Source of the DNA: an uncultured Clostridia bacterium
GTDB taxonomy: Bacteria; Bacillota; Clostridia; TANB77; CAG-508
DNA: 64,000 nucleotides
Direction: 5' to 3'
Assembly: GCA_934162255.1 (NCBI GenBank)
Contig: CAKPIG010000005.1
Coordinates: 18,480 to 82,479, forward strand
In this document: piece by piece, positions 18,893 through 41,563 of the stretch
Numbering within the stretch: position 1 is the stretch's first letter
Layout of the letters: the number at the start of each line of letters is the position of its first letter
The notes under the pieces: model-generated
The model's database searches: none
Seen by the model: only the letters and a program-made list of their open reading frames with translations
What the model was told of the DNA's origin: nothing
Program-made: the position numbers and the translations under genes

Positions 18893-19052
18893 TTTGAACT
18901 CCTTTCAATTTTTACCATTATACTTTTTTCTTTGCCTCTAGTAAATACTTTTCTGAATTTTCATTTAATAATTCAGCTCTATTTGGATAGACTATGTTTG
19001 CGAATTTTATTGCTATACTTCATTTAAGAATATTTTCAATGGGGTGATATAT

Positions 19053-19289
19053 ATGTATTTATCTGATGCAGTAAGAAATAGAATTAGATTTTATCAAGAC
19101 AAAAAGCAAATGAGTCTTTGGGCTTTGTTCAAGGCTTCTGGTGTTCCAATGTCAACACTTGCAGCTTTTATGAGTCAAAGAACTGAATTAATAAAGTTAG
19201 ATACTTTACTTCATATTTGCGAAGGTTTTGGTATAACTTTAACAGAATTTTTTGAAGACGAAGTTTTTAAAGAAGTAGAACAAGATTAA
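19053..19289 (+). CDS. XRE-family helix-turn-helix transcriptional regulator
   Basis: 78 aa. MSLWALFKASGVPMSTLAAFMSQRT...LHICEGFGITLTEFF is a typical HTH_3/Cro-C1 fold pattern. ATG at 19053 after GGGGTGA. Confidence 0.8.
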   Translation: MYLSDAVRNRIRFYQDKKQMSLWALFKASGVPMSTLAAFMSQRTELIKLDTLLHICEGFGITLTEFFEDEVFKEVEQD

Positions 19290-19297
19290 TTGAATAT

Positions 19298-19336
19298 TGT
19301 AATATTTTTGTAATATAAATGTAATGTAATTGTAAT
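19298..19336 (+). promoter_or_regulatory. Phased TGTAAT direct-repeat element, copy A
   Basis: Four TGTAAT hexamers start at 19298, 19309, 19320 and 19331, an exact 11-bp phasing. The element begins a few nt after the XRE stop codon and lies upstream of a TATAAT at 19359..19364 and the HExxH ORF. Confidence 0.6.
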
Positions 19337-19409
19337 ACACTTTTACGACAAAATATTGTATAATTAATTTGACGAATTTTTATACAAAAAGACAAATTTG
19401 GAGGATAAA

Positions 19410-20492
19410 ATGAGCATTGAGTCTGACCTACGCAAAGATGGAATTAGAGTAATCGACATACTTGATACAGTATCTGTAAATAAAATAGCTCATAGTATAG
19501 CCAAAAAACTTTGTGATAATTTTCCTGAACTTTGTTTTAGTGAAAATGTTTTATTCACAAAATTGTCTCAATTAAATATGTATAGAGCTAGTATGCCTGA
19601 AGGAATGGCTGAGGCTAACTATTTTTATAAAAATACATCTATATATTTTAATGAAAAAATCGCATTTGAGGACTTAGAAGAATTCGCTATTCACGAGTGT
19701 ATTCATTATATTCAAGAAGTTAAAGATAAAAAGAATAACCTTGTTCGAATGGGTCTATGCGTTTTTGATAATTTTAAAATTTTAGGTATGGGATTAAATG
19801 AAGCTGCTGTGCAGTATATGACTTCCAAAATCATAGGTATTGAAAGAGACTATGTAAAATATTTTGGAGTTTCTTTCAGAACAGCAAGTCCATCATATTA
19901 TCCTATAGAATGTAATTTAATTGAACAAATGGCTTATATAACAGGTGAATCTGTTTTATTTGATAGTACTTTTACAAGTAATGATAAATTTAAGAATAAG
20001 TTTATTGAGTTAACTTCTGAAAAAACATATGATGAGGTTGAATATTGTATCGACCAAATTCTTGAACTTGAAGAAACAATTATAAAATTAGGTAATAAGT
20101 TTGCTTCTTTTGATGAAAGAAATAAAAAGGTTGATAAAATAGTTGCAAAATCTGATAGCTGTAAGGCTAAGATTGCCGAATATTATGTTAAAGCTCAAAA
20201 TTTAATAATCAAAAATTATTTTGATAGAGCTTTTAAAAAGATTACTAATTTAGAAGAACTTGATGAATATAGAAAAAGCTTAGAACATTATAAGGAGTTA
20301 ATTGGTCGTACTGATGACTATACCTTCTTTGATGATTACTATACAGAAAAGATGACCGAGTTAGAACATAAATCTAATATACTTGAAAATGGCGGCATCG
20401 AAACTGCTCTTGAGGTCAAGAAAGTTAATAAATTTGTTTCTTGGTTTAGAGCATTTAAGAACTTCGTAACAGGAGAAAAAATACATAATTAA
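19410..20492 (+). CDS. HExxH metallopeptidase-motif protein (ImmA/IrrE-like N-terminal region, long helical C-terminus)
   Basis: 360 aa with ATG at 19410 after GGAGGA. It has FAIHECIHYIQE (HExxH), with GLNEAAVQY about 30 residues later as a possible third ligand. Confidence 0.55.
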   Translation: MSIESDLRKDGIRVIDILDTVSVNKIAHSIAKKLCDNFPELCFSENVLFTKLSQLNMYRASMPEGMAEANYFYKNTSIYFNEKIAFEDLEEFAIHECIHYIQEVKDKKNNLVRMGLCVFDNFKILGMGLNEAAVQYMTSKIIGIERDYVKYFGVSFRTASPSYYPIECNLIEQMAYITGESVLFDSTFTSNDKFKNKFIELTSEKTYDEVEYCIDQILELEETIIKLGNKFASFDERNKKVDKIVAKSDSCKAKIAEYYVKAQNLIIKNYFDRAFKKITNLEELDEYRKSLEHYKELIGRTDDYTFFDDYYTEKMTELEHKSNILENGGIETALEVKKVNKFVSWFRAFKNFVTGEKIHN

Positions 20493-20604: not shown

Positions 20605-22551
20605 TTATTGTATTCCAAATGAACCTGTATATGCATTTATTGCTTCTGTTGTACTTCCTAAATATCCAATAATCGTTTGTCTTGAATATGAACTCCCAAT
20701 TAATCCTGCATGATAATTTAATCCTCCTGAATCTGGTTCTCTAAACATTATAGATCTATATATTCTTCTAACATGTTCTGTGTTATTGTAGTTGTGTAAA
20801 TTATATTCCTCTCCATTTAATAAACCTGCTTGTACCACTGCCATTGCCATGTATTTTTGATTTCCTGATACACTTGAGCTATATCCACAAGATGAAAAAT
20901 ACCCTTGTCCACTAGGCCAATAGTTAAAATTATATCCATCATATAAAATCTTTGTCCAATATTCTTCACCTGAATCATCTGCCATTCTGTCTAATATATT
21001 ATAATATGCTCTTACAACAAATGCTTGGTATTTATTATATACTCTAATTGTTTGTTTTGCATATCCAATATTTCCTGCTGAATCTACTCCTTTTCCATAT
21101 ATATAATATATTGTAGAATTAGCTGCAGCTGTAGCTGATGATGGACTATCATTTGCAGAAAGTCTTATTACTGTTTCTTGAGTACTTCCTCCAGAAACAT
21201 TGCTCCAGTTTCCAGAAGCACTTACAGATGTTACATTATCATAATTACCAACATTTTGTGTGCTTGCTCTAAATTGAAGGCTTGTTATATATTCATTTGC
21301 ATTTATTCTCATAGTTATTGCTTTTCCAGAAAATGCTTTATATGTGCTTGTACTTGTCCCTGATGCCATTCCATTAGTCAAGTTATAACTATCAGTACCA
21401 ACTCTCATGTTATACCACATTGTTTCTCCTAATGATATGGTTGGAGCAATATTGTCTAAATAAAATGCATTTGTTCTAGCAGTTGTAGTATTTCCCACAT
21501 TGTCTTTGGCTATAACCCACAAATACCAGTTGTTTCCACTATCGACTGACCCTGTTATTGTCCCTCCATTTGAAAATGTTCTGCTAAATGAACTTTCTGC
21601 TGGTGTTGACGTGCTTTGAGTCCATGCATATTTTAATGAACTTGTATTAACTCCTGATCCACTATCAGATACTGTTACTGTTGTGCTATGGCTTTTAGCC
21701 CATGTTGTACTTCCATTTGTTCCAAAAGATACCGTTGGAGCTGTTATATCCATTTTTACTTGAGTTGTTTCAACTTCACTTACTTGTCCAAGATTATCTA
21801 CTGCTCTAAACCAAATTGTCGTATTATAATTGTTATACCATCCACCTTTTATGCTTGCTGAGTTTCCGTTTCTTTCTAGACTATTTCCCCAATTTGTTGA
21901 CCAATTTACATTATCATAACTAAACTCTATTCTGTCTATTTGTGTTCTATCATCTTCTGTTGATGATGTTGCTGTTATAGTCAACATTGAATTTGTCCAG
22001 TTTCCATTACTTGGGTTGTCTATTACTGGCTTACTTGGTGGTGGTGGACCTATTTCAAAATTTATGTATGAATTCAATTCATTGCTATTTGCAACAGTTC
22101 CATCTTTATATTTGAAAGTTATATATATTGTAACTTCCTCTTTTGATTTTATTAATCCTCCCTTTTGTATTCCTCCTGTATCAATAACTACTTCTATATC
22201 AGTATTATCATAAAATGACTCATCATAGCTTAAACCTATAAAAGCATAGTTTTGACTTGTATTGTTATATAATTTTACTTTATATGTTATACTTGAGCTT
22301 CCATTTGTCTTTGATAACACTACTGTATTACTTAACATTCTTTTGACATATGTATTTATTTTTGATTCTACTGTGTCTGCATCTACATTTGAATAATATT
22401 CTGCATCACTTATAAATACTCCTTCTTGTAAAGGACTTTCTGCTTGTACTTCTATTGTTCCTGTGATATTTCCTATACTTGCAAATGCAGTTCCTAATAT
22501 CATTACGATAAACATGAGAAAAAAAGGAATTATACTTCTTATTTTTTTCAT
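20605..22551 (-). CDS. Secreted surface protein with Ig-like modules and a C-terminal DUF4214-like domain
   Basis: 648 aa. The leader MKKIRSIIPFFLMFIVMILGTAFASIGNITG shares a motif with the two small paralogs at 39858..40878. Modules are repeated (DITAPTVSF...SDSGSGV...AKDNVGN). The C-terminus reads YYNILDRMADDSGEEYW ... IMFREPDSGGLNYH, which is DUF4214-like. Confidence 0.75.
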   Translation of the reverse strand: MKKIRSIIPFFLMFIVMILGTAFASIGNITGTIEVQAESPLQEGVFISDAEYYSNVDADTVESKINTYVKRMLSNTVVLSKTNGSSSITYKVKLYNNTSQNYAFIGLSYDESFYDNTDIEVVIDTGGIQKGGLIKSKEEVTIYITFKYKDGTVANSNELNSYINFEIGPPPPSKPVIDNPSNGNWTNSMLTITATSSTEDDRTQIDRIEFSYDNVNWSTNWGNSLERNGNSASIKGGWYNNYNTTIWFRAVDNLGQVSEVETTQVKMDITAPTVSFGTNGSTTWAKSHSTTVTVSDSGSGVNTSSLKYAWTQSTSTPAESSFSRTFSNGGTITGSVDSGNNWYLWVIAKDNVGNTTTARTNAFYLDNIAPTISLGETMWYNMRVGTDSYNLTNGMASGTSTSTYKAFSGKAITMRINANEYITSLQFRASTQNVGNYDNVTSVSASGNWSNVSGGSTQETVIRLSANDSPSSATAAANSTIYYIYGKGVDSAGNIGYAKQTIRVYNKYQAFVVRAYYNILDRMADDSGEEYWTKILYDGYNFNYWPSGQGYFSSCGYSSSVSGNQKYMAMAVVQAGLLNGEEYNLHNYNNTEHVRRIYRSIMFREPDSGGLNYHAGLIGSSYSRQTIIGYLGSTTEAINAYTGSFGIQ

Positions 22552-22669: not shown

Positions 22670-22713
22670 ATTAATTTTTTATTACATTTTTGTTACAAAA
22701 ATATTACAATATT
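22670..22713 (-). promoter_or_regulatory. Phased TGTAAT direct-repeat element, copy B
   Basis: On the minus strand it reads AATATTGTAATATTTTTGTAACAAAAATGTAAT and matches copy A at 31 of 33 positions. Hexamers at 22708..22703, 22697..22692 and 22686..22681 are 11 bp apart, with a degenerate fourth at 22675..22670. It lies about 130 nt upstream of the 648-aa ORF. Confidence 0.6.
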
Positions 22714-39817: not shown

Positions 39818-39852
39818 CAAAAAAACAGAAGAATTCTTTTCTTCTGTTTTTA
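39818..39852 (-). terminator. Terminator downstream of the paralog pair
   Basis: Stem ACAGAAGA / TCTTCTGT (39825..39832 and 39840..39847), followed on the minus strand by a T7 run. Confidence 0.75.
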
Positions 39853-39857
39853 TATAA

Positions 39858-40355
39858 CTATGGTTGTACAGGTGCTGCAGTTAATGATACTGTTATTTTT
39901 CCTGATGGACTTGTTGATATAGGTGTTTTTATTAGTTCAACTTTTACAGTTACTGTAGCTGTTTTTCCAGTTGTGATTGCTGCTGTTGTTGAAGGTGTTG
40001 CTGTAACTTTGAAGTATTCTGTATCTGTTATTGATGCAGCTGCTACTGCTATTTTAGCAGATAAATCTGGACTTGCATTAGTTACTGTAAATGTTGCTGT
40101 TGCACTATCTCCTTTTGCTGTTAGTCCTGATACTGTCATTGTTGCATTTTTATCATCTGTAATAGTTGCTTCTGTTACATGTGTACCTTTTGTTGGTGTT
40201 CCTGTAAATTTAACTTTGAAGTTTGCATCACTTGGAACAGCTGCTGCTGTACCATTAATATTTAATGTAATATTGCTTATTGCAGCATATGCTACTCCTA
40301 AAATTACAATTGCTGCAACTACAATTAATGCTATTATAAGATTTTTGTTTTTCAT
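39858..40355 (-). CDS. Small secreted Thr/Ala-rich protein, TasA/camelysin-like candidate (paralog 2)
   Basis: 165 aa. The leader MKNKNLIIALIVVAAIVILGVAYAAISNITLNINGTA resembles a SipW-type signal region (compare TasA GGGTWAAFND). LTAKGDSATATFTVTNASPDLSAKI matches the TasA-like L..GD.....F.V.N...L pattern. It has no Cys and no LPXTG. Confidence 0.75.
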   Translation of the reverse strand: MKNKNLIIALIVVAAIVILGVAYAAISNITLNINGTAAAVPSDANFKVKFTGTPTKGTHVTEATITDDKNATMTVSGLTAKGDSATATFTVTNASPDLSAKIAVAAASITDTEYFKVTATPSTTAAITTGKTATVTVKVELIKTPISTSPSGKITVSLTAAPVQP

Positions 40356-40383
40356 TCTTTATTTTCCTTTCTCTTTTATTAAA

Positions 40384-40878
40384 TTATGCTGTTGGTTGAG
40401 CTGGTGCTGCAACTAATTTTACTTGGATAGTAGCAGATTGATTTCCTGTTATTGGAGTTTTCAATAATTCAACTGTTACTGTTACTGTTGCACTAGCTCC
40501 TTTTGCTAAAGATGTTGGTGTTACAGTTTGTGTTACCTTAAAGTAATCTGTATTACTATTAGTATTTGTTACTGTAAGATTTGCTGTTAAATCAGGACTT
40601 GAGTTTTTTACTGTATATGTTGCTGTTGCTTTGTCTCCTTTTGCCGTTAATCCTGTTACTGTCATTGTTGCAGTTTTATCATCTGTTAATTTTGCTGTTG
40701 CTCCTCCTGTTGCTGTTGGTGTTCCTGTAAATCCAACACTAAAGTTTGATTGTGATGGAGATGCTGCTGCTGTACCATTAATATTTAATGATATATTACT
40801 TATTGCTGCATATGCAACCCCCAAAATTACAATTGCTGCAACTACAATTGCTGCAATTACAAGTTTTTTGTTTTTCAT
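40384..40878 (-). CDS. Small secreted Thr/Ala-rich protein, TasA/camelysin-like candidate (paralog 1)
   Basis: 164 aa. The first 40 or so residues are nearly identical to the downstream paralog. It contains LTAKGDKATATYTVKNSSPDLTANL. The two genes are 28 nt apart. Confidence 0.75.
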   Translation of the reverse strand: MKNKKLVIAAIVVAAIVILGVAYAAISNISLNINGTAAASPSQSNFSVGFTGTPTATGGATAKLTDDKTATMTVTGLTAKGDKATATYTVKNSSPDLTANLTVTNTNSNTDYFKVTQTVTPTSLAKGASATVTVTVELLKTPITGNQSATIQVKLVAAPAQPTA

Positions 40879-40940: not shown

Positions 40941-40968
40941 ATTATAGCATTTGAGATGTAAAAGTCAA
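40941..40968 (-). promoter_or_regulatory. Sigma-A promoter of the paralog operon
   Basis: On the minus strand: TTGACT (40968..40963), a 16-nt spacer, then TGC-TATAAT (extended -10, TATAAT at 40946..40941). Confidence 0.6.
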
Positions 40969-40983
40969 CAGATTTCGACTTAA

Positions 40984-41020
40984 TGTAATATTTGTAACAC
41001 AAATGTAATATTATTGTAAT
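40984..41020 (+). promoter_or_regulatory. Phased TGTAAT direct-repeat element, copy C
   Basis: Hexamers are TGTAAT at 40984, TGTAAC at 40993, TGTAAT at 41004 and TGTAAT at 41015 (spacings 9, 11, 11). The core TGTAATATTTGTAACACAAATGTAAT matches copies A and B. It starts 16 nt upstream of the -35 of the paralog promoter and is inverted relative to transcription. Confidence 0.55.
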
Positions 41021-41048: not shown

Positions 41049-41297
41049 CTATCCTTGTTGTAATTCAGTTTTTAATGTTTCAATTTCTGTTACTGTAGCT
41101 TTTTGTGCCGTTTTATAATATCCTTTTGAATTTGCTACTTTAAATAACTCATATTGAAAGCTTTCATCACTGTTTCTTATTTGTTGTAAAGTTTGTCTCA
41201 ATTGCATATTTTCAGCTTCAGATATTGCTGTTTGATATGCAGTTAAGTCAGCTTTTACACTTCCTAATATGTCATTTACCATTGTTTTTTCATCCAT
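41049..41297 (-). CDS. Spore coat protein, CotF-domain family
   Basis: About 82 aa. DILGSVKADLTAYQTAISEAENMQLRQTLQQIRNSDESFQYELF follows the Coat_F pattern. I prefer the ATG at 41297 after AGGGAGA. Confidence 0.6.
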   Translation of the reverse strand: MDEKTMVNDILGSVKADLTAYQTAISEAENMQLRQTLQQIRNSDESFQYELFKVANSKGYYKTAQKATVTEIETLKTELQQG

Positions 41298-41314
41298 AAC
41301 CAAAATCTCCCTTA

Positions 41315-41503
41315 CTAATTATTCAAAAAACTCATTAATTTTTGTTTTGTGTTTAATGCATCTTGTGCTGACTTTGTAAACATTTGCTTTATCTGAGCAT
41401 CTTGAACTTGATTTGAATATGCAGTTAATTTTTGATATGCAGTTTCATGAGCTCCAATCAAATGTCTTAAATTTTGCAATTCTGCTTGTGTTAAATCTGC
41501 CAT
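41315..41503 (-). CDS. Small coat-associated protein (partner of the CotF-like gene)
   Basis: 62 aa with ATG at 41503. LTQAELQNLRHLIGAHETAYQKL... resembles the small ORFs usually paired with CotF-like genes. Tentative. Confidence 0.45.
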   Translation of the reverse strand: MADLTQAELQNLRHLIGAHETAYQKLTAYSNQVQDAQIKQMFTKSAQDALNTKQKLMSFLNN

Positions 41504-41563
41504 TATAATCACCCTTTCTAATATTTTATAAATTTATTATGCACTTTTAATAAAAAGTTATAC

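Follow-up and report, generated by a model that had tools for sequence, protein, structure and literature searches.

A tandem gene pair of an uncultured Clostridia bacterium encoding candidate subunits of a TasA/AbpX/Tafi-like surface fibre

The abpX loci of archaea and Bacillota encode a ten-helix signal peptidase I and, as accessory, a DUF5305 protein, together with tip proteins and minor subunits (bioRxiv 10.64898/2026.01.04.697558). In Tafi loci, the genes for a signal peptidase (TafD) and a DUF5305 protein (TafG) lie by two or three genes for subunits of 150-200 amino acids (aa); tafD is needed for the fimbriae, TafE assembles by strand donation and, in a related archaeal system, TafA is processed by TafD (PMC11821415, PMC12337348). 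The mentions of DUF5305 that were found in the literature are all on strand-donation filaments. Here a tandem gene pair, termed A1 and A2, is compared with these systems. The pair lies in a stretch of 64,000 nucleotides (nt) from an uncultured Clostridia bacterium (GCA_934162255.1, contig CAKPIG010000005.1, positions 18,480 to 82,479), called the window below. We regard A1 and A2, with somewhat more confidence than doubt, as major-type subunits of a TasA/AbpX/Tafi-like fibre that is assembled by donation of an N-terminal strand, with a dedicated SipW-type peptidase encoded elsewhere in the genome and a 648-aa protein as tip or minor subunit. Fibre subunits are the most likely assignment because, in related genomes, homologues of A1 and A2 are encoded next to a dedicated signal peptidase and the helper of this enzyme.

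The A1/A2 pair and the peptidase cassette of related genomes

The two genes are as follows.
40384-40878, minus strand: gene A1, 164 aa, with signal peptide, conserved N-terminal extension and immunoglobulin-like (Ig-like) sandwich; candidate fibre subunit.
39858-40355, minus strand: gene A2, 165 aa, paralogue of A1; a ribosome-binding site of its own lies inside the 28-nt spacer.

An earlier note on this DNA had described two genes 28 nt apart for proteins of 164 and 165 aa with nearly identical first 40 residues. The open reading frames are confirmed, and 35 of these 40 residues are identical. The N-terminus common to both reads MKNK[KN]L[VI]IA[AL]IVVAAIVILGVAYAAISNI[ST]LNINGTAAA. Both proteins also carry the two motifs claimed in that note, LGVAYAAISNI[ST]LNINGTA in the leader and LTAKGD[KS]ATAT[YF]TV[KT]N.SPDL, and neither contains Cys; no LPXTG and no repeat was seen when A1 and A2 were read by eye, as had also been claimed. 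Over their full length the proteins are 65% identical (BLASTP E 1e-64), and at the DNA level identity falls from 87-88% over the first 120 nt to 58-67% over the final third (nt 301 on). The genes are out of frame (523 nt apart) and no single translated stretch spans both.

A cassette was found in 12 of the 16 related genomes sampled, in which one small A gene lies about 30-120 nt from the genes for a peptidase, a DUF5305 protein and a large protein termed B. The peptidase (372-381 aa) matches TIGR02228, the archaeal/ER-type signal peptidase I, with 95 and 89 bits at a cut-off of 52, Bacillus SipW being second. It has 8-10 hydrophobic segments ahead of the catalytic domain and conserved SM, HR and TKGD.N..D motifs. 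The helper of about 370 aa, which follows directly after the peptidase, matches PF17231 (DUF5305). The cassette B protein carries the same type of leader, GIGY[AS]↓[AS]INSITGEI.GK (the arrow marks the cleavage site throughout), and the first 100-150 residues of the relatives' B proteins match the hidden Markov model (HMM) of the A family at E 1e-6 to 1e-9. Between the A and B proteins of one genome there is covariation in the residues that follow the cleavage site, as in the loci listed here.
Locus L031: A, VVNGVILEISG; B, SVNSIILDISG.
Locus L035: A, ALTDVLDITG; B, ALSDHLLITG.
Locus L038: A, AISDTLFFSGDATI; B, ALSDTLSFGGDATI.

Since the same components are present in AbpX and Tafi loci, the cassette of the relatives is a bacterial version of the AbpX/Tafi platform. 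The linkage in these genomes, together with this layout, supports the earlier proposal that A1 and A2 are fibre subunits dependent on a SipW-like peptidase; membership of the TasA family is not supported, as described below. Dispersed subunit genes with a single cassette are usual in the relatives. One metagenome-assembled genome, for example, has ten A loci and one cassette.

The genomic site of the cassette could also be followed. In one relative it adjoins ruvA and an mgsA-like gene, and the ruvA neighbourhood just left of the window in the present species is without a cassette (L001/L002 3162-3770 versus L046 10541-11146). As the site is occupied in the relative and empty here, a cassette of the present species would sit at a different genomic site.

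Leader, fold and family compared with known fibre systems

The N-terminal features of the two proteins are given here.
40807-40878, minus strand: A1 signal peptide, residues 1-24, MKNKK followed by 16 hydrophobic residues and A-Y-A, with cleavage predicted after the invariant Ala24.
40738-40806, minus strand: mature N-terminal extension of A1, residues 25-47, AISNISLNINGTAAASPSQSNFS; candidate donor strand.
40215-40355, minus strand: A2 signal peptide (residues 1-24) and N-terminal extension (residues 25-47), with the same motifs as A1.

Conservation was followed in 46 homologues. The cleavage-site motif of the family is G-x-[GA]-Y-A↓A; position -1 is Ala, position -2 Tyr or Phe and position -3 Gly or Ala in 46 of 46. 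Residues 20-37 form the most conserved stretch, with 3.13 bits per column against 2.59 for the folded domain. Conservation in the family is highest in the 13 residues past the cleavage site, where Leu31 and Gly35 never vary and an alternating pattern of hydrophobic residues occupies positions 29, 31 and 33. The earlier note had judged the leader to be more TasA-like than a standard A-x-A Sec site, but A-Y-A↓A is an ordinary A-x-A signal-peptidase site. What is unusual in the leader is the conservation of this site and of the 13 residues that follow.

A1 was modelled with AlphaFold2 from the 46-sequence alignment, and a second model was made of the predicted mature protein from Ala25. The first model has a predicted local distance difference test score (pLDDT) of 92.7, with a helix at residues 4-24, no secondary structure at 25-47 and an eight-strand Ig-like beta-sandwich at 48-160. 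In the mature-only model the sandwich is kept and the first 18 residues are unstructured (pLDDT 56-71). As residues 20-37 exceed the domain in conservation and the part after the cleavage site stays unstructured in the models, the conserved maximum is made up of the cleavage site and an amphipathic stretch outside the monomer fold. This stretch has the look of an N-terminal donor strand, which is not to say that it is proof of one.

The single long helix at residues 4-24 of the model, and a hydrophobic core of 16 residues that is longish for a signal peptide, would also fit uncleaved type II membrane proteins, with the N-terminal helix as anchor, the Ig-like domain on the surface and the juxtamembrane motif docking to a membrane partner. 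Such anchoring is quite improbable given the invariant small residues at -1 and -3, the signal peptidase gene that adjoins the homologues and the processing of TafA by TafD in the related archaeal system.

Two other pilin classes were considered and rejected. A type IV pilin would have a class III leader, short and basic with Gly at -1 and followed by a hydrophobic helix with Glu5; in A1 and A2 the hydrophobic segment comes ahead of the conserved site, and a G↓F/T-L-x-E motif is lacking. For a sortase-assembled pilin, the C-termini (...AAPAQPTA and ...AAPVQP) show on reading neither LPXTG nor a C-terminal hydrophobic tail.

The system with which the earlier note had compared the pair is that of TasA/camelysin (PF12389; SipW and TapA in Bacillus). 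Like TasA, the family has a dedicated SipW-type peptidase (in the relatives), an aromatic-Ala cleavage context (TWA↓AFND in TasA, AYA↓AISN here) and a local strand-pair motif (LKPGD...F.F.N.GSL in TasA, LTAKGD...Y.V.N.S.DL here), and assembly of a fibre by N-terminal strand donation is a proposed analogy. In contrast to TasA, with about 230 aa in the mature form, the A proteins have about 140, and the relatives' peptidase carries a large polytopic domain that is absent from SipW. No match to PF12389 at E <= 1 was obtained in A1, A2 or 27 family members, whereas true TasA homologues all match. Alignment of the A family to 26 true TasA proteins with hhalign gave a probability of 35.8% over 33 columns, which cover only the PGD...N.GSL strand pair, the very motif that had been spotted earlier. 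Foldseek comparison with the TasA fibre (8aur) gave template-modelling (TM) scores of 0.39 and 0.38 at E 0.019 and 0.062 for the two models, a marginal result that generic Ig-like domains equal. Membership of A1 and A2 in the TasA/camelysin family is thus not supported; the A1 fold, as modelled, is a generic Ig-like sandwich with marginal similarity to TasA.

The top Foldseek match of the mature model is the thread subunit Saci_0406 of Sulfolobus acidocaldarius (PDB 7pnb; query-normalised TM 0.52, E 0.014, 12% identity), likewise a beta-sandwich subunit, with an N-terminal donor strand. This best structural match is nevertheless marginal, and the Sulfolobus cluster, unlike the relatives' cassette, is without a tafD or tafG homologue (PMC11821415). 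Besides many generic Ig-like domains, the list of matches holds cannulae, FimG, the PapG pilin domain and CfaB.

In gene content the relatives come close to the loci of Pyrodictium abyssi AbpX and its homologues, having a TIGR02228-type peptidase of about ten helices, DUF5305 and larger proteins of predicted minor or tip type. An amphipathic N-terminal strand after the cleavage site and the acidic nature of most family members (pI 4-5) are further likenesses. A1 and A2 themselves differ from AbpX. Their isoelectric points (pI) are 9.35 and 8.98 with 4.3% and 6.4% Asp plus Glu, against a pI of about 4 and about 15% acidic residues in AbpX; the pair lies away from any peptidase gene, and the family is without detectable sequence similarity to any solved structure. 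The N-terminal hallmark of AbpX is also absent, the predicted mature N-terminus being A-I-S-N, and A-L-[ST]-D in the distant relatives L033 and L035. The AbpX hallmarks are shared by most relatives and not by A1 and A2.

The Tafi clusters of haloarchaea, Thermococcus and Archaeoglobus resemble the relatives' loci in that the genes for a signal peptidase and a DUF5305 protein lie by small subunit genes. The pilus structure of Natrinema TafE shows strand donation, the mode of assembly that is proposed here for A1 and A2. Haloarchaeal subunits are exported by the Tat pathway, whereas the leader of the A family is of the Sec type. The relatives' peptidase has eight to ten membrane helices against four in TafD, and the subunit families TafA/E and DUF1102 are not matched by the A proteins.

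Clustered at 50% identity, the family amounted in an exhaustive search to 1027 clusters at E <= 0.001, of which 472 were at E <= 1e-10. The members are nameless in the sources or just called 'hypothetical protein'. Scans of A1, A2 and family members with Pfam and NCBIfam gave no model at threshold and no SipW-cognate signal model; sub-threshold matches to Ig-like families (DUF7507, DUF11, DUF1573, CARDB, TRAP-beta, choice-of-anchor D) were recurrent. Many members are of 400-750 aa, with the 164-aa module at the N-terminus followed by BspA-type leucine-rich repeats (LRRs) or other domains. The matches in the genome collection are all in metagenome-assembled genomes, mostly labelled Clostridia, whose isolate names point to the animal or human gut, and a genome may hold up to about ten A copies.

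Three loci of relatives add to the variety of the family. At L005 (7926-16167), four tandem genes fuse the A module (leader, strand and Ig-like domain) to differing C-terminal regions that are 380-580 aa long. BspA-type LRRs are present in P0126 and P0128, the representatives of the matching clusters, and the array resembles a cassette of exchangeable adhesin subunits. In the tandem pair of L026 (9917-10441 and 10626-11132), the peptidase-proximal copy is basic and, with A1 and A2, spans pI 9.0-9.7. L007 (5788-6483) encodes a divergent A-like protein of 231 aa (HMM E 6e-35) with an altered leader and strand, NSYA↓IATSKKIS; this gene, situated 1.2 kb upstream of that for the cassette peptidase, may represent a minor subunit type.

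Several results weigh against the assignment of A1 and A2 as fibre subunits. No peptidase or DUF5305 gene was found in the window or 10 kb leftward (tblastn with the relatives' proteins; same-species contigs). The family has no sequence link to TasA, AbpX or any solved pilin, and searches of all PDB chains with two profiles of the family brought up neither a pilin nor a matrix protein at E <= 10, the presence of an AbpX entry among these chains being unconfirmed. There was no Foldseek match at E <= 0.001, with generic Ig-like domains scoring level with pilins. With eight strands already present in the monomer model, secondary structure alone gives no clear sign of an open acceptor groove. Finally, A1 and A2 are basic, whereas 22 of the 23 relatives tested are acidic (pI 4.05-5.04), as is the AbpX family.

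Much of this could be accommodated if A1 and A2 were monomeric, secreted or wall-associated Ig-like proteins, processed by the housekeeping signal peptidase and forming no fibre. The N-terminal stretch would then bind the wall, DUF5305 or a host ligand, and the A domain would serve as stalk or base of adhesins. The complete sandwich of the model, the lack of a dedicated peptidase in the window and the level scores of pilins and generic domains agree with this, as do the A-Y-A↓A site, which obeys the general signal peptidase rule, and the many relatives in which the A domain is the base of LRR adhesins. We consider it rather unlikely all the same, in view of the close association with the genes for a dedicated peptidase and DUF5305 in the 12 genomes, the stretch after the cleavage site, which tops the domain in conservation and covaries between A and B of the same genome, and the fibres that the same gene set makes in archaea.

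Transcription unit, TGTAAY arrays and the 648-aa protein

The signals and genes around the pair are as follows.
40941-40968, minus strand: sigma-70-type promoter of the pair, TTGACT-16-(TG)TATAAT, with 11/12 matches and a TG extension.
39821-39851, minus strand: intrinsic terminator after A2, a 13-pair stem followed by a T run.
41049-41303 and 41315-41512, minus strand: CotF-like genes directly upstream of the pair, one with a Coat_F domain (E 1e-21).

The promoter agrees with the strong extended -10 element recognised earlier. A second terminator (41050-41026) closes the CotF-like genes upstream. With its own promoter, its own terminator and this terminator behind the CotF-like genes, the A1/A2 pair is a separate transcription unit. 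The other CotF-like gene gave only sub-threshold matches, to families of the four-helix-bundle type. In same-species contigs from several metagenomes of the human gut, the pair is retained together with its neighbours, namely pcrA, two cotF-like genes, an M23 peptidase gene, a mecA-like gene, radC and mreB.

The position of the pair directly downstream of two CotF-like genes, in a neighbourhood kept within the species, raised the question of spore-surface proteins of the coat, the exosporium or an appendage. This is very improbable. The layout of promoter and terminator rules against a spore-coat link, as the terminator parts the cotF-like genes from the pair, which has a sigma-70-type promoter of its own. 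Homologues elsewhere lie in peptidase cassettes and not by coat genes, A1 and A2 lack Cys and do not resemble Ena-type appendage subunits, and a Sec signal is uncommon in mother-cell coat proteins.

Three TGTAAY arrays, a candidate regulator and the 648-aa protein are located elsewhere in the window or upstream of the pair.
40984-41020, no strand assigned: TGTAAY array with 11-bp phasing, the phased hexamers being at 40993-41020, about 25 nt upstream of the -35 box of the pair; candidate operator.
22681-22708, no strand assigned: TGTAAY array upstream of the gene for the 648-aa protein.
19044-19289, plus strand: XRE-family helix-turn-helix gene, 81 aa, with an HTH_26 match and a third TGTAAY array directly after it (19298-19336); candidate regulator.
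20605-22551, minus strand: 648-aa 'B' protein with an A-type leader (LGTAFA↓SIGNITGTIEV), an A-like first domain, Ig-like modules and a C-terminal DUF4214.

The window contains 9 matches to the TGTAAY arrays where 1.24 are expected, and none of 100 shuffles reached 9; the TGTAAT element noticed earlier just upstream of the pair thus proved to belong to a phased array. In three other species, arrays of this kind are found close upstream of A genes (L016 9656-9672, L026 9816-9832 and L027 9762-9778), that of L026 being about 20 nt ahead of a TTGACA box. This recurrence points to a conserved operator and a common regulon, and the arrays are probably such an operator. With respect to the gene, the array at the pair is oriented differently from that at the 648-aa gene, and no XRE homologue was found near the cassettes of the relatives. 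The SinR-like role suggested earlier for the XRE regulator is tentative; in its favour, one TGTAAY array adjoins the gene. Downstream of the XRE gene and its array, a gene on the plus strand (19398-20492) encodes a 364-aa protein with no family match and a HECIH (HExxH-like) motif, which could be an ImmA/IrrE-type partner of the regulator.

Over its 166-171 N-terminal residues, the 648-aa protein is 43% identical to the large protein of the cassette in relatives. It is a candidate tip or minor subunit. The earlier suggestion that it is a partner of the pair is favoured by this homologue in the relatives' cassettes; its gene is 17 kb from the pair and belongs to another operon.

Proposed assembly and biological meaning

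For A1 and A2 as fibre subunits, the following mechanism is proposed. The two genes would be co-transcribed from the strong vegetative-type promoter, and the proteins would be exported by Sec. A dedicated signal peptidase, presumably encoded elsewhere in the genome, would then cut them behind the invariant Tyr-Ala; this enzyme would be of the SipW/archaeal type, fused to a many-helix membrane domain and partnered by DUF5305. Cleavage would free the amphipathic AISNI[ST]LNINGTA, which lies outside the predicted Ig-like sandwich of the subunit itself. The freed stretch could then be inserted as a beta-strand in the next subunit, and the 14-kDa proteins would form a non-covalent surface fibre comparable to those of TasA, AbpX and Tafi and to the Sulfolobus threads. 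Larger proteins that share the leader and begin with an A-like domain, such as the 648-aa protein and the LRR fusions of relatives, may join the fibre as tip or decorating adhesins.

A wider reading is possible, if rather doubtful. An Ig-like family without recognisable kinship to the TasA jelly roll may have been recruited to an ancient signal-peptidase/DUF5305 platform in gut and rumen Clostridia. Leader, strand and first domain would then act as a plug-in module, by which scattered genes, co-regulated through TGTAAY, feed one chaperone-free donor-strand fibre and basic variants shift its charge. If this is true, small subunits, LRR adhesins and the 648-aa protein would all contribute to the fibre, and the basic pair would give it another surface charge, and hence other binding, than that of the acidic, calcium-dependent AbpX type.

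A system of this kind has already been sketched in a 2026 preprint (bioRxiv 10.64898/2026.01.04.697558). The points of interest here are the unnamed subunit family, the scattered arrangement of its genes and the basic charge of A1 and A2. With 1027 unnamed clusters, the family merits a family model and an experimental structure. Since subunit genes can sit far from the assembly genes, operon-based searches undercount such systems. If the proposed assembly is true, abundant uncultured gut Clostridia would bear a fibre built like Bacillus TasA or archaeal bundling pili, with many interchangeable, adhesin-bearing subunits. Such fibres would be relevant to attachment to mucus, food particles and microbes and to the formation of biofilm in the gut.

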